Both the position numbers and the translations under genes were made by a program. DNA of 64,000 bases from Escherichia coli (GTDB taxonomy: Bacteria > Pseudomonadota > Gammaproteobacteria > Enterobacterales > Enterobacteriaceae). This document shows, piece by piece, positions 2,076 to 54,905 of the stretch (its first letter is position 1; the number at the start of each line of letters is the position of its first letter). A model generated the notes under the pieces. That model was not told where the DNA came from. It worked only from the letters and a program-made list of their open reading frames with translations, and did not search any database. The stretch lies in assembly GCF_016026235.1 (NCBI RefSeq), contig NZ_CP065613.1; one strand, given 5' to 3'.

Positions 2076-3398
<1,323 letters not shown>

Positions 3399-3544
3399 TT
3401 ATGGGGTACCTGCGGCCTTAAAATAACACCCAGACAACATCACAGAAATGTACCTGGATCATAATTGAAACAAAAAGGTTAAAAAGTTTGAGCTGGCTCG
3501 CACAAACCAGCACTTTTTAAAGTTTTGTAATCAGTTTGGGGTAG

Positions 3545-5533
3545 CTACTTTTCTTCCAGGTAACTCTCTTCGAAGATTTCAATAGGGAGTGGACGAGCAA
3601 AAAGGAAGCCCTGGGCAATACCAACGCCCGCTTTTGCCAGCCAGTCGCGTTGTGCTTCAGTCTCCACGCCTTCGGCAATCATTTGTAAGTTCAGGCTCTG
3701 CGCCAGCATGATAATTGCAGCAATCATGCTGCTATCTTCCGGCAAGCCTTCAACAAACATTTTGTCGATTTTCAGAACGTCGATTGGCAACGATTTCATA
3801 TGCTGCAGCTGACGCAGCCCTGCGTAGCCCATGCCGAAATCATCCAGCGCCACCCGAACTCCGGCATTACGCAGCGGACGGAGGATTGCCACCGCAGCAT
3901 GAGGGTCGTCAATACGTCGGCTTTCTGTCACTTCCAGAATCAGTGTTCCCGGCTGAATGCGATAGCGGGTTAACAGTTCCAGCATATCCGCCACCATATT
4001 CGGGTGCATCAGTTGCAGCGCAGAGAGGTTTACCGACAAGGGCAGCATAATGCCGCGCTCTTGCCAGGCTGCAAGCAATCGACAGGACTCTTCCAGCACC
4101 CAGTGACCGACGGTAACCATCAGCCCACAGCACTCAATGCGATCGATTAAGCCATCCGGCAGGTCCCAACTGCCATCCGGTTGCTGGATACGCAGTAACA
4201 CTTCCGCACTGACCAGTTTACCGCTGGTCATCTCGACCTGTGGCTGTAACCAAATAGCAAACTGATGATTTTCCAGTGCATTAAGGATATCGCTCTCTTC
4301 CGTCAACCGCTTCTGGGCGGCTTCCATCTGCTGCGGATCAAAGAACTGAATCTGATTCTTGCCTTTATGGCGAGCGGTAAATGCCGCAGAAATAGCGCGA
4401 CTGTAAAGCTGTTCGGCGGTGAGATCGCCGTAGAACATCGCCACGCCAATGCTACAGTGCGGACGGAGTTGAATACGTTCAATCGGCAGGCGCTCGCTCA
4501 TGATAGTGAGCACTTGCTGACCCAAAGTGATTGCGTGCCACGGTTCCTGTACACCGTTGGCAATGACAGCAAAGTCATAACCGCTAATCTGCGCGAGGAT
4601 CATACGTGGCGACAGTACCGATTTGAGTTTTTCCACCAGCGTCAGCAGCAGAATTTCTCGTTGCGCCTCTTTCAGCACGCCCGCAGTATCACGCAGGGTT
4701 TCACAGGTGATGATCATCAGCGCGGTGGTTTGTTTACGCGCGACAACCTGCTCCAGCATCTCCATCAGCAAGGCTTTGTTCGGCAAATCCGACACCGGGA
4801 AGCGCATCGCATTTTCGTTCTGTTCTTCATAATGGCGCTGCAGCAATTGCTGGTTGAGGTTGTAACTGCGCACCAACATACCGATTTCATCGTCCTGATG
4901 CAGACGCGGTAATGCCAGTTGGTGACCAACAAGCTCCTGGGCTGGGATGGCGTTAAGTTCGCGAGCAATATTGCGTAACGGATGCAAAATCAGGCGGTTA
5001 ATGCACCAGCTAATCGCCACCGTCAATATTAACGACAAAAGTAAGTAAATGGTCACTAACGTTGAGAGGGTGCTCATCACGAACTTATACATACGGAAGG
5101 AATCCGCCTGTAGTACCAGATAGGCAATTGGCTGCGGGTTTGCCGGACGTTCGAGCGAGTAAACGCCCAGCGAGATTTGAACCGGTAGCTCAAACAGGCG
5201 AGTAACCATTACCGGCACCGGGCGCTCTGGAATAAAACTTTTACGCAGCGCCTGGAACTGGTTGGGCAGCACTACATCGGCACGGCTGACCACGCCTGCC
5301 GGTTTAATGCTGGCAAGAATAGCTTCCGCTTCGGGAATATCACCTTTCAAAATGGCTGAAGATAAAGGTTCGCGGACAGAGCGAGCAATGCTTTCCAGTT
5401 GCGTAGCCGTGTTATAGCGATTCTGCTGGACCAGATGGAACAGCAAAACGGTGCAAAAAATAAAAACGAACACCAGGACAACGGCTGCCACCATTGCCAT
5501 CTGCTTGATTGTTAACGAGCGACTTACGCGCAA
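3545..5533 (-). CDS. pdeK: c-di-GMP phosphodiesterase, membrane-anchored with degenerate GGDEF and EAL domains
   Basis: 662-aa ORF with an N-terminal TM segment and a C-terminal EAL-type region (ELxR-like, DDFGxGYAGL motifs visible); sits between dctA and bcsC as yhjK/pdeK does in K-12. Confidence 0.85.
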
Positions 5534-5614: not shown

Positions 5615-8600
5615 TTACCAGTCGGCGTAAGGTATCAGCGGCTGCGGCGGTAAATCCATGTCACCCTGCCATCCGGCGGCGGAATAACGTACGTAGAGCA
5701 GGAAATGGCTGGGTGCGTAATCTTTCGCCTGCTGGATATCAATTGCCGTGCCAACAAACCAGTTGGAAGTAACACGTCGTTCAAGTAATGCCCGCGCCGT
5801 GTAGCCGAAGCCCTGACTGCTGCCGCCATCGTTGGATTGCCGCGCAGCTTCTTCCTGCCAGTCGGTCGGGATCAGATTCATCAGCGGATAACGCGGCATG
5901 GTTTTGGTGCGTGAATGCGACCACGAGCCAGACGCCCCCAACTCCCACGACCAGTTTTCCGTGCGCTCCCGCCACATCACCGGTATGGCAAACGACAGGT
6001 ATTCCTGCGGACTGTAGTAACCGCCCTGACCGAGTGAGTAGCCACTCAGATCTTTGTCGTAATGCCAGATCATGTTGTTCAGGCCGATTGTGACGCGGCG
6101 ATTGTTCTGGTTAATGACCTTATAGTAATAGCCCGTCATCCAGCGCACGCGCCAGTTATCTTCGACATTTTTACCGGTTAACTGGTCGCCACTAAGCGAT
6201 GCCCAGACGCCGTTTGCTTCACCTTTATCGTAGCTCAGACTTAGCCCCACACCGTCGGCACGTACGCCACCCCATTTTTTCCCGGTATTGCTCGGGGAGT
6301 CTTTTTGCCCACCAAAGGCCAGCAAAGAACTGGAGATGGGCCGACGGTGGGCGTTAACGGTGTAACCCAGCGGCCCGATATCATCGCTGTAACTGATGCC
6401 GCCGACCACATCCACCACGTTGAAGCCCATCGGCGTGGTACCGATATCCCAGCTCCAGACGTCATTTCGCCAGCCGACCGCCACGCTGGCACCGGAATCC
6501 GACTGGCTGCGGTTGCCGCTACAGTCCTGTAATGTACAGGTGCCCCAGTTATCATCCCATTTACCATCGGCATTAGTGGAGAAACTGCCGACGTTCATAT
6601 TGACGAAATCACTGCGAAAGAACATCCGCCCGTCAGAATACGGCGCATCCACCTGCAACATGGTAGTGTGCGCTTTCAGATCGGAGTAACCACCGGTGCC
6701 GCTCGAACCCCAGTAATCATGCTCGAGGGTGACGTTAAGATCCTGCTGGCGATAGAGGTCCGCCGCATCGCTGCGCACGCCGCGTTTCAGCCAGTCATCT
6801 TTCTCGTCGTTACGGGTCAGTCGGGTAAAGGTGTCGTTATCCTGCGGACGCGTCGTGGTCACACCGGATGCGACCATGGCGTCTTTGTAGGTTTCCAGCG
6901 CCTGCTTTGGATCGCCCGCCTGCGCTTCAAACTTCGCACCATCACGCAGTACCATCGCACTTTCCATCGACGGCGGCTGAGATTTTGCCTGCGGGATCAA
7001 CTTATTAAACGTCTGCTGCGCCGCTGCGGTATCGCCAAGCTGCGCCTGCGCCAGCGCCACGCGCCGCTGTGTGTTCAGCGAGGCGTTATCGGTAGCGGGC
7101 AGTTTCGCCAGCTGGCTACGTGCCGCAGCTGTGTCACCGGCAGCAATATCCACTTCCGTCAGCCCCAGAATGGCATCGGCGTTAGTTGGCTCCCGCGTCA
7201 GGACATTCTGATACGCAGCGCGGGCGGCGGTGTAATCACGTCGCTGCTGCGCCCAGTCAGCCAGCGTGAGGTCAATACGCGTGGAAGGTGGTTGCTGGCG
7301 CAGCATCGCTTCCGCTTCTGCCTCTTTGCCGCTTTCTCGCAGGCGGTTAGCGGTTTCCAGCACCTGATCGCTTTGCAGTCGATTAACCAGCTCCTGAATA
7401 TTGCTGTTCCACTGCGCACGCGGCAGGCTGTTGATATGCGCCAGCGCCGCTCTGTCCTGGTCATGACCAGAGAGGTACAGCCCGTAAGCGTAAACCTGCT
7501 CCGGGTCGTTCGACTTCTGCTGCGCCAGATTGCGCATTAACGTATCGGCCTGGCTGCGTTGTCCGGCCTGCCAGAGATCCTGCGAAAGTCGGTAAGTAAT
7601 CCATACGCTGCCGGGGTCCAGCGCCAGTCGTTGCCGCTGAAGTGCTGCCGCCTGCGCCCATTTGCCCTGGTTTTCCAGTGCCTCTGCCTGCTGTGCCAGA
7701 CGGTCGTTTTGCAGGCTGCGTTCGATATCATCAATGCTACGCCGCTGACTGGCAGAGAGCGAGGCGATAAACGCTTCAGCTTTTTCTGGCGATTGCTGGC
7801 GGTAAATATTTGCCAGCCCGCGCACGGCGTTAGTGTTGCCGCTGTCCATACGCAAGGTCTGCTGATAATAACGTTCGGCGGCGGGATAATCTTTTCGCGC
7901 CATCGCCACATCGCCCAGCCCCAGCACTGCATAACTGTCGGTGTTATCGACATTACGCGCCTGCTGGAACAGGCGTTCTGCCCGGTCAGGATTATTGGCT
8001 TTCAGCGCAGCATCGCCCTGCTGGATCGCCAGCCAGTAGCGGTTTACTTTCAGCAGACTGTTCCATTTGTCGTTGTTGCTGCTGTGCGGGTCCAGTGCGA
8101 GGGCTTTTTCCAGATTCGCCACTGCATTGGCGCGATCGCCTTTCTGAGAATACGCCTGGCCCAGCGCCCCCAGAGCTTCACTGTCTTTCGGGTTCGCCCG
8201 CACCGCCTGTTGTAGTTCGGGAATGGCTTTACCCGCCATACCAGAGTCCACCGCCGCTAAACCTTGCGCACGAGCGCGGAAAGCAGGATCGGCCAGCTGT
8301 TTTTGCTGTTCTGCCAGTTGCGATTGCGCAGCCGCCACGCTATCGCCATCACTAAAGATCGAGAGATATTTTTTCAGCGCCGACACACTGGCATCACTGA
8401 CGGGCATGTCTTTAATCTGCCCGTACCAGATTTTAGAGGCCCCTTCGCGCCCGGCGTTCGATTTTGCCATCTGTTCCAGGACGGCAAAACCTTCGTCACG
8501 GCGATCGCTACTAAACAGCAATAGCGCCAGATTGTTTTGCAGGCCCGTATTGCCCGGTGCATCCGCATTGATGCGTTTTAACTGATTAATCGCTTCGCCA

Positions 8601-9088
8601 CGGCGAGCCGGAATTTTCGCCACCGTACTCCAGTACTCGACAGCAATGTCACCTTCCGGCGGCGCACCGTTGAACAGTTTGTTGTAACTCGCCACAGCTT
8701 CTTCTGCATGACCGGTCGTCGCCTGCAATCGTGCCTGTTGCAGTGCCTGACGACCATCCGGCGTGGAAAGTAGCATCGTAGTCCGCGACGATTTATACGC
8801 ATTTGAACTCGGCGCTAACTGCGACAGCCGATCGAGCTGTTTTTGCGCGCCATCAATATCGCCCTGACGTAACAAAGAACGGAAACGGGCGGCAACGACG
8901 TCCGGGTTATTCGGATCAATAAGTTCCAGCCGATACAACGACTGTTGCACCAGGTCTTCACGATGGGTCGCTTCGCCTAACCGAACTTGCTCCAGCAACT
9001 GTTGCTGAGCGGTTGGTGCTGCCTCGACCATCGGCATGACGGCCAGACCGAGGGAAAGCGTGAATATGTTTAGTGTGAATTTGCGCAT
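5615..9088 (-). CDS. bcsC: Cellulose synthase operon protein C (TPR-repeat periplasmic scaffold plus outer-membrane beta-barrel)
   Basis: 1157-aa ORF with a signal peptide, many TPR-like repeats and a C-terminal beta-barrel-like region; last gene of the bcsRQABZC cluster. Confidence 0.93.
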
Positions 9089-10176
9089 TCCTGGCCCCAG
9101 TCAGGTAATAACTCACCTTTTGTCGAGAAGCGGAAACGGTGTTGATCCCAGCCTTGTCCAAACAGGGTCAGCACATAGTTGTAATAGGCATCGCTGCCGG
9201 GAAAGTTATCGGCCACGCGCTGGCGCTGAACGGCCTGCGCATCGCGGTTTTGTAAAAAGGGCAGCATGGCGGCAGAAAAACCGACCGGTCCTTTACCCTG
9301 CGCTTTCCCCGTAGCCACATCCACTTTTTCCGGCGGATAACCGTTTTTCTCAGTGAATGTCGCCATCGGTTTAAACCGGTTGAGCATCCGCGCTTTCTGC
9401 GGATCGCTGTCAGGCATCATGCCTACCCACATGTAAACGCGGATAGCGTCGTAGCTGCTGATCAATGTTTTTTCGGCTTTTAGCTGCCAGCCTTTGTCTT
9501 TCTCATAGCGCACCCAGTCTGGCGAAAAGCCTTTCGGGGCGGTTTCCAGCAATAAACGTTGATTGGTTTCGCGCAGCGTAGTCCACGGCGCGCCAAAGCG
9601 GGTGAAATACTGCGCCAGCGTCGGCGGCAGGTAGCTGGGGTTAAAACGCCAGCTGTTATCCTCAGCAAAACCCACTTTGCCCGGTAACAACATGGAACCC
9701 AGCCCAAGCACCGTCACCACTTCCTCCCGCGCAATACGTTTTAGCAACGCGCTGCCGATGTCGGTATAACGCTGCTCTTTCCACAAACGACCCGCCTCCA
9801 GCAACGACCAGGCCATCCAGACATCACCATCGGAGGCCGAATTGCTGTCCAGCACTTCCCACTTACTGTTCTCTTTCTTGCCCCACAGCCAGGCGGGCAA
9901 ACGTTCTTTTAAAGAACCCTGAGCAAGATTGTTCTGCGTCCAGTCGAGAATATTATCGAAAGCTGCACGGTCGTTAGCCGCCAGGGCAAAGAACATGCCG
10001 TAACTTTGCCCTTCAGAGGTGGTGATTTTGCGCGCGTCGCTGGAGTCGATGACGCGCCCTTCCTGACTGATGTAATCCTTTTTAAACTGCTCCCAGGCAG
10101 GCCAGGTACAGGCTGCCTGAACACTAAAGGCAGCCAACAGCAGCATCGTCACGAGTCCACTACGCAACACATTCAT
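9070..10176 (-). CDS. bcsZ: Endo-1,4-beta-glucanase (GH8 cellulase) of the cellulose synthesis operon
   Basis: ORF track gives 370 aa; the canonical start MNVLRSG (ATG verified at 10174-10176) gives 368 aa. Overlaps the bcsC start by 19 nt. Confidence 0.92.
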
Positions 10177-10182
10177 CTTCAA

Positions 10183-12522
10183 TTACTCGTTATCCGGGTT
10201 AAGACGACGACGACTAATAATTCGCAGCAGACGCCACAGTACCCATGCCAGCAATATCACACTGATAGCCGCCAGCACCGCCAGCAGAATCGGATGGTTT
10301 GCCAGCGCATACCACAAGCGCTCGAACCACGGCAGATGACCTACGTAATAAACGTCGCCAACACGTAGGCTGTTGATACCGGACTCGCGGATCACCGCGA
10401 CCGAACCGAACATGGTGGCGCGTTTGCCGCTATCGTTCACCGCATCGTTAAGCATTTCATAACCGCGAGGGCTATCTGCCAGCAGCGCAATCACGCTGCG
10501 CTGGTCGTTATATGGCGACTGGAAGCCAATCACCGCCGCCATCGCACCGGAAGAGGTCAGCGTTGACTGGGTTTCTGCCGCGCGATCGCTCTCGTCCGGC
10601 ACAATGCCGGGGAACGGGGTCTGGCGCATCGGTGTTTTCACCCAGCTTTCGGTCGCCTGCACCAATAGGTCGATCTGCTTATCGTCTTTCAGTTTGTCCG
10701 GGATACCACCGATGATCATGATGTCGGCATCTTTGCCCTGAATGGTGCTGCCATCATCGGTCACCGTCAGATTAATCGCCGGGAAGCCCGTCTGTGCGCC
10801 GATAAAACCAACAGTATTCAGCAAGGTTTCCATCTGTGCTTCGTTAGGCGTTTTCGGCATCACGGTGATGGTTTGCGACAGATCCGCCATCCGGCTGAAC
10901 GGGAAGCCCGCGTTAGCAAAGGCGCGTAGATCCGGCATCGGGATGAAGTGGTAATACTTCGAGAAGTCGATGGTGGAATCGTCACCAATCACCACATGAT
11001 TCTGCACCGGCTGGAAGGTAATACAGTTATCCACCGAACCGCCCGGCATCGGGTTCATATACTCAAAGTCGAAGCGCAGCTGGTTGGTCGCGCCCAGTTT
11101 CAGCGCCGGAATAGAGACATCCGTTTTGCCATCCAGCAAACCTTGTAATACCGGAATCCGCAGCAGCAGGCGATTCGCCTCCTGTTTGCTGCTCAGGTTG
11201 AAGGATTGCAGGAACTGGTTATTCAGGCTGATATCCATCCGCGAACTGTCTTTCACCGGCGGCATGGTGTAGCGGTAATTAATATCCATATCAATGCCGG
11301 TACTGCGCATCAGGTAGAGATCTGGCGGCAGGTTTAGCGAAACGTTAATCGCTGCTGGCTCAAGACCGCTGGATTGTAACTGTTCTTCATAGGTTTTCAG
11401 TTCACCAAAGGTGACCGGACGATCGGTACGCACCCAGTTCGGCGCATCGTACGGCTTACGCGGTAGCAGCGGTTTCACTTCATTCACTACCACGCTTTCA
11501 CCACGGAACAGAATGTTACCCTGAGCGATACCTTTCGCTGCCTGCAACAGGTCTTTGTGGTCACGACCAAACACCACCAGCAGTTTGATGTAAGGATTCT
11601 GCGGATGGTTAATCATCTCAATCACCGGGGCTTTTACCGCCGGATGATCGCGCAGGAAGTCCGGCCGTTTGTCGTTGGTTGCAAAGACAATGGCATTGCG
11701 ATCCGGCAGTTGGTTATAGAGTACCGGGAAGTTCTGCCCACGCCAGCCAGAACGCGAACCAAACCACGAGGCGACAATGGCAGAGGCTTGTTGCAGCCCA
11801 ACATCCGGCGCACCCGCAAAGACCATCGGCAAGGTGTTGGTGCGGTTATCACGCGGATCAAAGAATGGCACCGGGAAGTGTGACAGGTCATTCTTCACAT
11901 TCAGGGTCTGATAGGTCAGATCCAGTCCACTGCTCCGCCCAACATCCAGCCAAAGCGTGGTGCTGGCCGGGTTTTCGCACACGTCCTGATAATGGCCGAC
12001 AAACTCCAGCCGCACACGGTTGAAGTCGGTAATAAACAGTGGGTTAATGGGCATTTGCGCCAGCGTTTTTTTACCCAACTGTTCTTTGGTCACTGGCAGC
12101 ACGCCCATCAGCTCATCATTGAGATAAACCTTTAACTGCGACTGGACAGGCAGTAACGATGGCGATGGCGTGTATTCGAGGTTGAGCATCGCCTTCGTCA
12201 CCACTTCATCGCTGCGCATACCAAACTCAATGCTGCCGTTCGGGTTAATGCCACGTAGCACCATGCTGCCCGGCGGCGGTGCAATTTGCGCAAAGGTCAG
12301 CTTCACATCACGCGAAGGACCGTTCTGCGCCACGACTGGCGCATCAGCGCCCTGCACGCCCGGCATCACTTGCCCCACCTGCGGATTTTGTTCCGTCTGG
12401 GCGGCTACAGCTGGCTCAGCATTGATCAGTGGTTGCGTTGCTGGCGTCGCCTGCGTCATGAAAGAGGGGAACGCACTCATCCCCATAGCCACTGCACAAA
12501 TCCAGAATAGTTTTCTTTTCAT
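10183..12522 (-). CDS. bcsB: Cellulose synthase periplasmic subunit B (c-di-GMP-regulated)
   Basis: ORF track gives 808 aa; trimmed to the MKRKLFW start (ATG verified at 12520-12522) gives 779 aa, matching E. coli BcsB. Confidence 0.93.
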   Translation of the reverse strand: MKRKLFWICAVAMGMSAFPSFMTQATPATQPLINAEPAVAAQTEQNPQVGQVMPGVQGADAPVVAQNGPSRDVKLTFAQIAPPPGSMVLRGINPNGSIEFGMRSDEVVTKAMLNLEYTPSPSLLPVQSQLKVYLNDELMGVLPVTKEQLGKKTLAQMPINPLFITDFNRVRLEFVGHYQDVCENPASTTLWLDVGRSSGLDLTYQTLNVKNDLSHFPVPFFDPRDNRTNTLPMVFAGAPDVGLQQASAIVASWFGSRSGWRGQNFPVLYNQLPDRNAIVFATNDKRPDFLRDHPAVKAPVIEMINHPQNPYIKLLVVFGRDHKDLLQAAKGIAQGNILFRGESVVVNEVKPLLPRKPYDAPNWVRTDRPVTFGELKTYEEQLQSSGLEPAAINVSLNLPPDLYLMRSTGIDMDINYRYTMPPVKDSSRMDISLNNQFLQSFNLSSKQEANRLLLRIPVLQGLLDGKTDVSIPALKLGATNQLRFDFEYMNPMPGGSVDNCITFQPVQNHVVIGDDSTIDFSKYYHFIPMPDLRAFANAGFPFSRMADLSQTITVMPKTPNEAQMETLLNTVGFIGAQTGFPAINLTVTDDGSTIQGKDADIMIIGGIPDKLKDDKQIDLLVQATESWVKTPMRQTPFPGIVPDESDRAAETQSTLTSSGAMAAVIGFQSPYNDQRSVIALLADSPRGYEMLNDAVNDSGKRATMFGSVAVIRESGINSLRVGDVYYVGHLPWFERLWYALANHPILLAVLAAISVILLAWVLWRLLRIISRRRLNPDNE

Positions 12523-12532
12523 CGCGTTATCA

Positions 12533-21443: not shown

Positions 21444-22715
21444 ATGCAGCACAACACACTACCGAAACACGATCAGAAATTGCCGTTTACACGCTACGAC
21501 TTCGGCTGGGTTTTATTATGCATAGGCATGGCGATTGGTGCCGGAACCGTGCTGATGCCAGTACAAATTGGCTTGAAGGGAATTTGGGTATTTATTACCG
21601 CAGCGATCATTGCTTATCCTGCCACCTGGGTAGTGCAGGACATTTATTTAAAAACCCTTTCTGAAAGCGATTCCTGTAATGACTACACCGATATTATCAG
21701 TCATTACCTGGGGAAGAACTGGGGAATTTTCCTCGGGGTTATCTACTTTTTGATGATTATCCACGGGATTTTTATCTACTCTCTCTCCGTGGTTTTCGAC
21801 AGCGCCTCGTACCTGAAAACCTTCGGTTTAACCGATGCCGATCTTTCACAATCTCTACTTTATAAAGTCGCCATTTTCGCCGTACTGGTGGCGATTGCGT
21901 CTGGTGGTGAACGATTACTGTTTAAGATTTCTGGGCCAATGGTGGTGGTCAAAGTAGGGATTATTGTCGTGTTCGGTTTTGCGATGATCCCGCACTGGAA
22001 TTTCGCCAATATAACCGCCTTCCCGCAAGCCTCCGTCTTTTTCCGCGATGTCCTGCTTACCATTCCATTTTGCTTCTTTTCTGCGGTATTTATTCAGGTA
22101 CTTAACCCAATGAATATTGCCTATCGTAAACGGGAAGCAGATAAAGTACTGGCAACCCGGCTCGCGCTGCGTACCCACCGAATTAGTTATATCACGCTCA
22201 TCGCGGTGATACTGTTTTTTGCCTTTTCGTTTACCTTCTCAATTAGCCACGAAAAAGCCGTTTCTGCCTTTGAACAAAATATCTCGGCACTGGCACTGGC
22301 CGCGCAGGTGATCCCTGGACATATCATTCATATCACCTCTACGGTGCTGAATATCTTTGCCGTACTGACCGCATTCTTTGGCATTTATCTCGGTTTCCAC
22401 GAGGCCATTAAAGGCATTATTCTCAATCTGTTAAGCCGAATTATTGATACCAAGAAAATTAACTCACGCATGCTGACTCTGGCGATCTGCACTTTTATCG
22501 TCATTACGTTGACGATTTGGGTTTCGTTTCGTGTATCGGTGCTGGTGTTCTTTCAGTTGGGAAGCCCGTTATATGGCATTGTGTCGTGCCTCATTCCGTT
22601 TTTCCTGATCTATAAAGTCGCACAACTGGAAAAACTTCGCGGATTTAAAGCCTGGCTGATTCTGCTTTACGGCATTTTGCTATGCTTGTCGCCACTGTTG
22701 AAGCTGATTGAGTAA
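21444..22715 (+). CDS. yhjV: Predicted amino-acid/serine-type inner-membrane transporter
   Basis: ORF track gives 444 aa; trimmed to the [11 protein letters not shown] start (ATG verified at 21444) gives 423 aa, matching E. coli YhjV. Multi-pass hydrophobic protein. Confidence 0.88.
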
Positions 22716-36781: not shown

Positions 36782-37082
36782 TTAAAAAATTACATTAAAA
36801 AGAAAATCTTGATGTATCAAAATCGACAACTTTGAAGGAAGGATTATACAATTAAATACGAATAATAAAATTATACGAATAATATATTAATAGCACATCC
36901 AATTTTAAATCTTAAAAAAAATCATTGCGTTACATTTTTACATAAAAAGCTATCGTTTATTTTTAGGAATAAATAAATATAAAATATCAATTAAACAAAA
37001 CAAAAACATTCACCACACAAATAATAAGATAAAATATTTTCATTTTTATTCTTTAAAATGTAATAAAAAAGGAGGATTTCCT
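36782..37082 (-). promoter_or_regulatory. Extremely AT-rich upstream region of the lpf operon (probable promoter / nucleoid-protein-bound region)
   Basis: About 300 bp that are overwhelmingly A/T, directly upstream of lpfA. Specific promoter elements not resolved. Confidence 0.4.
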
Positions 37083-38376
37083 CTGAGGGATCCCCAGAAA
37101 ATTTAGTAAACCATTATCATATTGGTATACCGTTGCTGTAGAACTTTCAGCCCTGCGTCAAGTGACAGTGTGTTTAGTATGAGTGGAGAATGTCGAATCA
37201 CATTCTCCGCCAGTTTTAATAACGAGATGACTCGCCTGTGCTTCACTGTATTTGCCTGATATTTATGATGTATCCCTTTGTTTTCCAGGCTGAAACCGCT
37301 TAACCACATAATGATACTGGCTAATGTTGCGATCAGACTCAATACCGTGACCCGCCCGGATGAATGACTGGCACCAAACCGTAGTCCAAATCCCCAGCGA
37401 GGATTTTTTTCATCCCTGAAATTTTGCTCAATTTGCATTCTACGGCTGTATAATTTCATTACCTGTTTTGGCGAGAACTCAGTACTGTTTGTGAAAATAA
37501 ACCATGGTGATTTCCCGGCAGTACGAGCTTTAGCCGTCACCGATGGTCTGGTTGCTCTTTCCTTCGAGCGTTTAAATCTACGACCTTTAGGCTTACTTTT
37601 ATAAAGATAAAAATGCCCTTCATGTTGTGCATTTTTATCTCGACCCAGCAGGCCTTCACCTAAATAAATTGCTGTCGTTGATGCTTTTGTGCCTGAGTCC
37701 GACACCTTTTCCCAGCCATTACCAACATTGTAATAATGATTGCCCAGTACCCGGCAAATATAGGTCCAGCCACGGGAGCGGAGCTGTTGGAACCATCGCC
37801 CCTGAAAACCGGCATCTGTAATAACAATGACATCAGTCCCGGGGGAAAAGCACTCAGCAAGCGATTCCAGAAAACGCTCATGTACATCTGCATTCGCTGT
37901 CTGTGATGATGGAACGACACAACTCATCAACGGTAAAGAACGCCCGTCACATGCCAGGCTTGCCCGCAAAAGCTGAAAACGAGAGGCATGATAAGCACTC
38001 CAGTCAATGAGTATCACAACACGAGACATTCCCCGCGTAATCTTTTGGGTAATTCGCTGAAAAATGGTGGAAACCTCATTTTGCAAATGTCGATTCCCCA
38101 ACAGTCGATCCACCCGCTTTATTTTGTTTTTAACTGATGCCGTACCGGTTAAATGACGCCCGATACTGGTAAGTGTGAGGGAAGCGCCATTTATTACAGC
38201 ATTAGTTGCGTCAATCAGTGATTTTTGACGGTAAAGATGCAAAGGGGCCAGTATGTTGTTAAGGAAATTTTGGCATAATGAACGTGCAGGCATAGTGGTG
38301 ATCTCCTTGAAATTGTTAGCACAATCAATTAGATCACATCTCACTATGCCTGTCTTGTTTTCTGGGGATTCCTCAG
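37083..38376 (-). mobile_element. IS10-like insertion sequence (IS4 family), about 1.29 kb, with imperfect terminal inverted repeats and flanking direct repeats
   Basis: Left end CTGAGGGATCCCCAGAAAA (37083-) and right end, reverse-complemented, CTGAGGAATCCCCAGAAAA resemble the IS10 termini I recall (CTGAxGAATCCCC). Flanked by AGGATTTCCT at 37073-37082 and 38377-38386, so the boundary is uncertain by 1 bp. Confidence 0.8.
37103..38293 (-). CDS. IS4-family (IS10-like) DDE transposase
   Basis: ORF track gives 443 aa from 38434; the likely real start is the ATG at 38291-38293, inside the IS (MPARSLCQNF..., 396 aa). Motifs shared with IS10 transposase: IKRVDRLLGNRHL, VITDAGF, YSRRMQIEQNFRD. Confidence 0.8.
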   Translation of the reverse strand: MPARSLCQNFLNNILAPLHLYRQKSLIDATNAVINGASLTLTSIGRHLTGTASVKNKIKRVDRLLGNRHLQNEVSTIFQRITQKITRGMSRVVILIDWSAYHASRFQLLRASLACDGRSLPLMSCVVPSSQTANADVHERFLESLAECFSPGTDVIVITDAGFQGRWFQQLRSRGWTYICRVLGNHYYNVGNGWEKVSDSGTKASTTAIYLGEGLLGRDKNAQHEGHFYLYKSKPKGRRFKRSKERATRPSVTAKARTAGKSPWFIFTNSTEFSPKQVMKLYSRRMQIEQNFRDEKNPRWGFGLRFGASHSSGRVTVLSLIATLASIIMWLSGFSLENKGIHHKYQANTVKHRRVISLLKLAENVIRHSPLILNTLSLDAGLKVLQQRYTNMIMVY

Positions 38377-38417
38377 AGGATTTCCTCCCCCTTTCGTTCA
38401 AAATCTGTAGTTTCTGG

Positions 38418-53135: not shown

Positions 53136-53576
53136 TTATTCGCTGTATTCTTCCTGGGTAACCTGTGTTTCTTTTGGTGGGTTTATTCCGGCATCACGAA
53201 TATTTTTCTGCACCGCTACTGCACCAAACAAGCTTAAGAAGAAAGCCAGTCCATAAAAACCTTTTTCGCTGAGTAATAATGTCGCATTCCACAGACCTAC
53301 CATCAGTAATGCAACAGAGATAATAAAGACAGTCAGGCAGGTCATATAATAAATGGAAGTGGTCGGTATGCCTTCATACTTGTCCCGAACGGTCTTTTGA
53401 TAAGACGCCGCAGAAAACAGTCCTAATACCAGTACGGCAAAATAATATCCTTTTTCATTTAACTGCATCTCTGCATTCCATAGCCCTAACAGATAGGTAA
53501 CGATACCACCAACGAGAGCTATCCATGACACAATACTAAAGGCCGGTGAATAGGTTGATATTTTGTTGTCCATCAC
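53136..53576 (-). CDS. yiaA: Inner-membrane protein (YiaA/YiaB family)
   Basis: 146-aa ORF with four predicted TM segments; matches YiaA. The start may be the second Met. Confidence 0.85.
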
Positions 53577-53952
53577 AGTATTCCTTTCATTCCTGAATGT
53601 GTAAGAGCTTTATGTTGCTCATACCGAGCGAAACAAACGCATTTGACCAAACAAGCAGACAAAAAAGGCGATGGGGTAGATCACCATTTCATAAGCATTG
53701 ATAGGTGCATTTAAAACACCGATAAACAAGAGACCGATAGTGATTAACGCAACTAACTGGCAAATATGGGTAAAAAAATTATCCAGTTGCCCGAGTTTTT
53801 CTGCGCGAAGATATGCATAGTTGCCAAAAGTTGCTGTCATTAACACGCCAAGAAAATAGCCTTTTCCACTCAACAATGGGCATGAGATCCATAGCCCGGT
53901 AATGCTGCCAACTTACTGATTTAGTGTATGATGGTGATTTTAAGGTGCTTGC

Positions 53953-54228
53953 GTGGCTTCCATTTCCATCAGATGTCCTTCCTGCTCCGCTACTGAAGGC
54001 GTGGTGCGTAACGGCAAAAGCACTGCCGGACATCAGCGCTATCTCTGCTCTCATTGCCGTAAAACATGGCAACTACAGTTCACTTACACCGCCTCTCAGC
54101 CCGGTACGCACCAGAAAATCATTGATATGGCCATGAATGGCGTCGGATGTCGCGCCAGTGCACGCATTATGGGCGTTGGCCTCAACACGGTTTTACGTCA
54201 CTTAAAAAACTCAGGCCGCAGTCGGTAA
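53953..54228 (+). CDS. insA: IS1 InsA (transposition inhibitor / N-terminal part of the InsAB' transposase)
   Basis: 91-aa [46 protein letters not shown]..., matching IS1 InsA. Confidence 0.92.
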
Positions 54229-54650
54229 CCTCGCGCATACAACCGGGCAGTGATGTGATTGTCTGCGCTGAAATGGACGAACAGTGGGGCTACGTCGGTG
54301 CTAAATCACGTCAGCGCTGGCTGTTTTACGCGTATGACAGGATACGGAGGACGGTTGTGGCGCACGTCTTCGGTGAACGCACTCTGGCCACACTGGAGCG
54401 TCTTCTGAGCCTGCTGTCGGCCTTTGAGGTCGTGGTATGGATGACGGATGGCTGGCCGCTGTATGAATCACGCCTGAAGGGAAAGCTGCACGTTATCAGC
54501 AAGCGTTACACTCAGCGCATTGAGCGACATAATCTGAATCTGAGACAACATCTGGCAAGGCTGGGACGGAAGTCACTGTCGTTCTCAAAATCGGTGGAGC
54601 TGCATGACAAGGTCATCGGGCATTATCTGAACATAAAACACTATCAGTAA
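54147..54650 (+). CDS. insB: IS1 InsB frame (expressed as the InsAB' transposase by -1 frameshift)
   Basis: 167-aa ORF in the -1 frame relative to insA, containing the IS1 transposase catalytic region; coordinates are the ORF-track frame, not a verified initiation site. Confidence 0.85.
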
Positions 54651-54905
54651 GTTGGAGTCATTACCCCATAGCCCAACCAGATAAACCAGCGCCCCGACAA
54701 CAAATAATAGTTTTGCCACAGTCTTTGAGGTTTTCATAACGATCTCCATATCTACCAGCGATACATTACGAGTAACCAACGAAAGACAAAACTGAAAAAT
54801 GCCATTAACAAATGATTTTCAGAATAAATTCATACTAAATATTAATTAATTACTGAGATATATAGATGTGAATTATCCCCCACCCGGTCAGGCAGGGGAT
54901 AACGT

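Follow-up and report, generated by a model that had tools for sequence, protein, structure and literature searches.

IS1 has been described as a 768-bp insertion sequence with imperfect inverted repeats (IRs) of ~ 30 bp, an A6C motif with a role in frameshifting, and target duplications of 8 or 9 bp; its promoter overlaps the left inverted repeat (IRL) in part (PMC12428005). The targets of IS1 are loosely conserved and AT-biased, with 9-bp duplications making up as much as 78% of events in a large experimental set, and the element is documented to accept GC-rich targets too (PMC10359306). The IS1F variant differs from the consensus IS1 by 73 mismatches and was found experimentally to add essentially no transposition in K-12 (PMC12428005). 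The copy analyzed here lies in a 64-kb stretch of Escherichia coli DNA, hereafter the window, and almost certainly arose when an intact IS1F-type IS1 transposed once, in a simple event, into yiaB on the chromosome of an E. coli strain.

The element occupied positions 53898-54665 (plus strand), exactly 768 bp, and was the sole IS1 copy in the window. It aligned end to end with IS1 copies of other genomes, its first bases being GGTAATGCTGCC and its last GGAGTCATTACC. The inverted-repeat search located imperfect terminal repeats of 23 nt, 87% complementary, namely IRL at 53898-53920 (GGTAATGCTGCCAACTTACTGAT) and IRR at 54643-54665 (ATCAGTAAGTTGGAGTCATTACC), both given in plus-strand coordinates. 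A promoter-like site, CTGCCA-16-TATGAT, was placed by the promoter scan at 53905-53932, where it overlaps IRL in the position of the described weak insA promoter. The insA gene (53953-54228, plus strand), which encodes the repressor, has 91 codons from a GTG start and carries a zinc-ribbon and an HTH domain. The A6C slippery motif AAAAAAC (54204-54210, plus strand) is embedded, in the insA frame, in TTAAAAAAC at 54202, and a programmed − 1 frameshift there leads to InsAB′. The InsAB′ coding region (53953-54650, plus strand) specifies 232 residues after the frameshift and contains no internal stops, the insB′ frame being open to 54650. Both insA and insB′ are transcribed opposite to yiaB. InsAB′ scored 245 bits against the NCBIfam model of IS1 family transposases (NF033558, cutoff 100), and 248, 95 and 70 bits against PF03400, PF12759 and PF03811, respectively; the Pfam domains matched were DDE_Tnp_IS1, HTH_Tnp_IS1 and Zn_ribbon_InsA. 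RefSeq labels copies identical to this element as “programmed frameshift” or “IS1 family transposase”. An earlier note on this DNA had claimed a 768-bp IS1 within yiaB, and the extent, the transposase profiles and the IRs all agree with that claim.

Both ends of the element are directly abutted by a perfect direct repeat of 9 bp, CCATAGCCC, recovered by the repeat search at 53889-53897 on the left and at 54666-54674 on the right. On the minus strand the duplication reads GGG CTA TGG, i.e. Gly-Leu-Trp, in frame in both yiaB fragments, as the earlier note had stated. The left copy provides codons G22-L23-W24 of the 3′ fragment (53619-53897, minus strand), which comprises codons 22-113 and the stop, resumes with GLWISCPLLSGKG and is split from the promoter and the start codon. 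The right copy provides the last three codons (22-24) of the 5′ fragment (54666-54737, minus strand), which starts at the ATG at 54737 and encodes codons 1-24 (peptide MKTSKTVAKLLFVVGALVYLVGLW). The chance that a given 9-mer recurs at one given position is ~ 4^-9 = 4e-6. The window holds three copies of CCATAGCCC, compared with 0.51 expected from shuffles; the third, at 53478-53486, belongs to the paralogue yiaA, in which it forms the homologous codons for G-L-W.

Removing IS1 together with one copy of the repeat left 984 bp that were 100% identical to the yiaA-yiaB-xylB locus of E. coli GF3-3 (NZ_CP053259, L002 3001-3984), in which yiaA, yiaB (WP_000858193.1) and xylB are annotated as intact. 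The reconstructed yiaB ORF has 113 codons for amino acids and scored 169.8 bits with the NCBIfam YiaB model NF008492 (cutoff 130) and 44 bits with PF05360, which upholds the placement of the insertion after codon 24. The window and GF3-3 were colinear, with 99.3-99.6% identity over 3.5 kb on each side of the site, and the window was also colinear on both sides with EC2641, the closest long match. The check set in advance, whether the two flanks are contiguous in uninterrupted yiaB alleles, found them contiguous, exactly so over 984 bp in GF3-3, and the claim was not refuted. Neither junction has been altered since insertion, in line with the earlier reading of a simple transposition with unrearranged junctions.

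The same reconstruction bears on whether the element might mark a rearrangement breakpoint, produced by recombination between IS1 copies, by an adjacent deletion or inversion, or by a resolved cointegrate. IS1-associated deletions are indeed common at yiaAB in other strains, e.g. from the yiaB 5′ end to xylF in H10407/SEC470, and IS1 with an adjacent deletion, lacking matching flanks, was also found in YZLc1-3, EC17CM6, ZH177, 730V1, DS26-1 and the clonal group typified by GZ04-0086. In the window, however, the identical 9-mer stands on both flanks, the rejoined flanks form the exact empty site, and on neither side is there a break in synteny with reference genomes. We therefore regard a breakpoint as highly improbable, and the rearrangement reading was dropped as effectively refuted by the exact 984-bp empty site. 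Equally little credence is due to an assembly artefact, in which the assembler would have put a repeated IS1 into yiaB. IS1 is a multi-copy element, present in E. coli at a median of 11 places per genome, and repeats of this kind are a well-known cause of misassembly, but misplacement would not give a perfect 9-bp duplication, of a length typical of IS1, exactly at the termini of the element.

Simple transposition thus remains our explanation, and the events would have followed established IS1 biology. The InsAB′ transposase would cut the two strands at CCATAGCCC with a stagger of 9 bp, the IS1 ends would be joined to these cuts, and gap repair would then duplicate the 9 bp. No evidence contradicts this explanation. 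We must also note that CCATAGCCC is 67% GC, whereas IS1 usually prefers AT-rich 8-9-mers, which counts slightly against the simple explanation; the surrounding gene, however, has only 41-44% GC, and GC-rich targets of IS1 are documented (PMC10359306).

The insertion follows codon 24, inside the first two-helix YiaAB domain, for which Pfam matched residues 6-51, and it splits YiaB within the first predicted transmembrane helix. The 5′ fragment continues for 26 codons into IS1, up to a stop at 54585-54587, and the predicted product is consequently a chimeric peptide of 50 residues. Since the 3′ fragment has neither start codon nor promoter, the allele is presumably null, yielding at most the 50-residue chimera. 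The paralogous yiaA (53136-53573, minus strand), located downstream of yiaB, is an uninterrupted ORF with 197.8 bits in the NCBIfam YiaA model (cutoff 150), so the earlier description of it as intact was correct. In an Lrp ChIP/RNAP study, yiaB and yiaA were treated as separate transcription units, yiaA having its own promoter (PMC10127797). Polarity on yiaA may therefore be limited, and yiaA probably keeps its own promoter in the window. On the upstream side, 168 bp separate the end of xylB from the start codon of yiaB and ~ 240 bp separate it from IS1, and xylB should be unaffected. Scans of the surroundings for promoters, terminators and Rfam families returned no RNA elements and no terminators at the insertion point, and the only promoter-like site there was the one in IRL. 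In the literature searched, we found no phenotype of yiaB loss and, on yiaB with IS1 or on yiaA/yiaB function, nothing relevant except the transcription units mentioned above.

To estimate how widespread the allele is, the whole interrupted locus, with IS1 in both orientations, was used as a megablast query, and the junctions of every high-coverage match were mapped. The exact yiaB::IS1 allele, in either IS1 orientation, was found in none of the 5,426 complete RefSeq E. coli genomes. Exact-junction scans of GTDB representative genomes and metagenome contigs likewise gave no matches. The failure to find the allele, the lack of divergence between the duplication copies and the 100% identity of the element to other copies jointly suggest a recent, strain-specific event; as judged from these sequence comparisons, the insertion looks strain-specific and is probably recent. 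Its absence from the 5,426 complete genomes makes the allele usable as a strain-specific marker.

The same segment has been hit by IS1 in other strains. Within ~ 1 kb of yiaA-yiaB, other genomes carry IS1 at no fewer than 16 distinct duplication sites, and at several deletion junctions. In GF3-3 (L002) coordinates, where the site of the window is 3490-3498, simple insertions in the orientation of the window were mapped with 8- or 9-bp duplications at 2785, 2839, 2980, 3014, 3050, 3067, 3141 and ~ 3337, and further at 3573-3581 (duplication CTACCATCG, L005), 3649 and 3696. Those in the opposite orientation were at 3269, 3604, 3618 and 3681. IS1A, IS1B and other variants are represented, in both orientations, and the presence of different variants between the wecH end and the xylB end indicates that the insertions were independent. 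In PEC41 and JSWP021 (yiaB::IS1A), the small AT-rich gene pair is likewise interrupted by IS1 in simple events with 8- or 9-bp duplications. The insertions of PEC41, JSWP021 and H10407 differ from that of the window in coordinates, in IS1 variant and sometimes in orientation, and none of them shares its junctions.

Several of these loci deserve separate mention. In the enterotoxigenic strains H10407/SEC470 (L011 3003-3770), the left end of an IS1A lies in yiaB 4 bp from the insertion point of the window, and to the right of this IS1A a deletion has removed the yiaB 5′ end together with xylB, xylA and the beginning of xylF; from the loss of xylB, xylA and the xylF start, a xylose-negative strain is predicted. 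In E. coli O19:H7 730V1 (L018 1501-2282), an IS1B has its right end directly at the yiaA copy of CCATAGCCC, in the register of the window, with 243 bp deleted on the side opposite to the 9-mer; this junction may reflect a shared micro-target or a coincidence. Three micro-sites in the yiaA-yiaB-xylB genes and intergenic regions were used more than once, with strain, IS1 variant and orientation differing between the insertions, at L002 3141-3149, 3649-3656 and 3576 (window ~ 53540, ~ 54825 and ~ 54752, respectively). Several yiaAB deletions end exactly at reused micro-sites, a pattern that suggests that a pair of resident IS1 copies recombined. Two IS1 copies are present in YZLc1-3, and EC17CM6 has the one-copy deletion.

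Such clustering raised the question of a hotspot. Control queries were built identically (498 bp + IS1 + 495 bp) from three other regions of the window and evaluated at coverage ≥ 80%. IS1 was present in or near yiaAB (44% GC in the flanks) in 18 genomes, in comparison with 9 for xylA-xylF (42-43% GC), 32 for cspA-hokA (42% GC) and 3 for yhjY-tag (49% GC), counts that include clonal relatives and allow only a rough comparison. The segment from the wecH end to the xylB end has 40-44% GC, versus 53-58% in glyS/glyQ upstream and xylB downstream. A special IS1 hotspot at yiaAB was dropped as an explanation, as AT-rich control regions bear a similar load and yiaAB is no outlier. Given this comparable load, we ascribe the yiaAB hits to the known AT bias of IS1 and not to a hotspot. 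The distribution fits a load that follows AT-richness and dispensability, with the regional AT preference of IS1 as the parsimonious reading.

These counts also speak to the idea that the insertion was not neutral, either because loss of the YiaA/YiaB membrane proteins was selected or because the 9-mer encoding G-L-W is a sequence-specific hotspot. The number of duplication sites and deletion junctions around yiaA-yiaB, the IS1B end of 730V1 in identical register at the paralogous 9-mer, and the IS1A end of H10407 so close to the site of the window all speak for this idea. Yet the control counts are comparable, with a load that follows AT content, clonal relatives are included in the genome counts, and the literature searched gives no phenotype of yiaB loss. 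Moreover, the coincidence at the paralogous 9-mer was recognized post hoc and has a chance of ~ 2% under a uniform model. We consider selection or a sequence-specific hotspot quite improbable. A bolder version, in which CCATAGCCC and yiaA-yiaB form a true IS1 micro-hotspot determined by sequence or structure and the intact IS1F-type element is an active master copy, is also unlikely in our view. If the micro-hotspot were real, independent strains would be converging on a yiaA/yiaB knockout, and if the master copy were real, there would be an active IS1F lineage, although work in K-12 dismissed IS1F as immobile.

The wider neighbourhood contains other traces of mobile elements and deletions. 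A second insertion sequence, of 1,292 bp and the IS4 family, is located at 37084-38375 (“IS4-like element ISEc60 family” in RefSeq), in the interval that separates yhjX from lpfA and ~ 30 bp downstream of the stop codon of yhjX. This element has terminal inverted repeats of ~ 18 nt and a perfect 12-bp duplication, GAGGATTTCCTC, at 37072-37083 and 38376-38387. EC2641, the closest genome, is without it, and among the 5,426 complete E. coli genomes only 14 had full-length copies, in some cases on large plasmids. The Rfam scan placed rdlD-type antitoxin RNA genes at 20051, 20534 and 21017 (window 20051-21082), a tandem array of three with a spacing of 483 bp, which implies a triplicated ldr/rdl toxin-antitoxin cassette; the equivalent locus of K-12 presumably has a single ldrD-rdlD. 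In EC2641 (L019 1995-4709), an IS1B stands in place of ~ 15 kb of the window (6501-21655), the deletion starting inside bcsC and reaching a transporter gene that is truncated; this is one more IS1-associated deletion in the vicinity.

The yiaB insertion is an ordinary, textbook event of a kind already known, and its general importance is small. It offers a clean example of gene inactivation by IS1, and one more case of IS1 in the dispensable, AT-rich yiaA-yiaB pair. What the analysis adds to the earlier note is modest, namely the IS1F type, the absence of the allele from the collections searched, and the repeated IS1 hits in yiaA-yiaB.

Compared with the described IS1 elements, the copy in the window shares its family, its length, the insA-A6C-insB′ order, the IRs and the 8-9-bp duplication with IS1A/IS1E (the “consensus” IS1) and IS1B of K-12. 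At the nucleotide level it was 91.4% identical to a copy of the IS1A type and 91.0% to one of the IS1B type, and its InsAB′ had 94% amino-acid identity to that of an IS1A-type copy. IS1A and IS1B, at ~ 91% nucleotide identity, also differ in the second triplet of IRL, reading GGTGATG where the window has GGTAATG. The IS1F of K-12 MG1655 (NC_000913.3 4518472-4519239; L020 4473-5240) is much closer, with 763/768 identical positions (99.35%). It is likewise 768 bp long with GGTAATG...CATTACC termini, and it and the window copy are both ~ 9% diverged from IS1A/IS1B. Four of the five nucleotide differences between the two are coding changes, and InsAB′ of the K-12 copy carries H34P (in the CxxC...HC zinc ribbon), T52K, W163stop and S208L. 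The insB7 gene of K-12 IS1F is annotated as a pseudogene and the copy is defective, whereas in the window all frames are open and the A6C site is present. These four changes damage InsAB′ and would explain, in a simple way, the immobility of IS1F reported in K-12.

Many E. coli genomes have copies 100% identical to that of the window at other, unrelated loci, next to RHS, hchA, yjfZ and other genes. Their presence beside unrelated genes implies, without proving, that the intact IS1F-type variant is mobile in nature. Judging from sequence, the IS1F lineage, defective in K-12, would thus appear to exist in wild E. coli in a form that is intact and evidently mobile.
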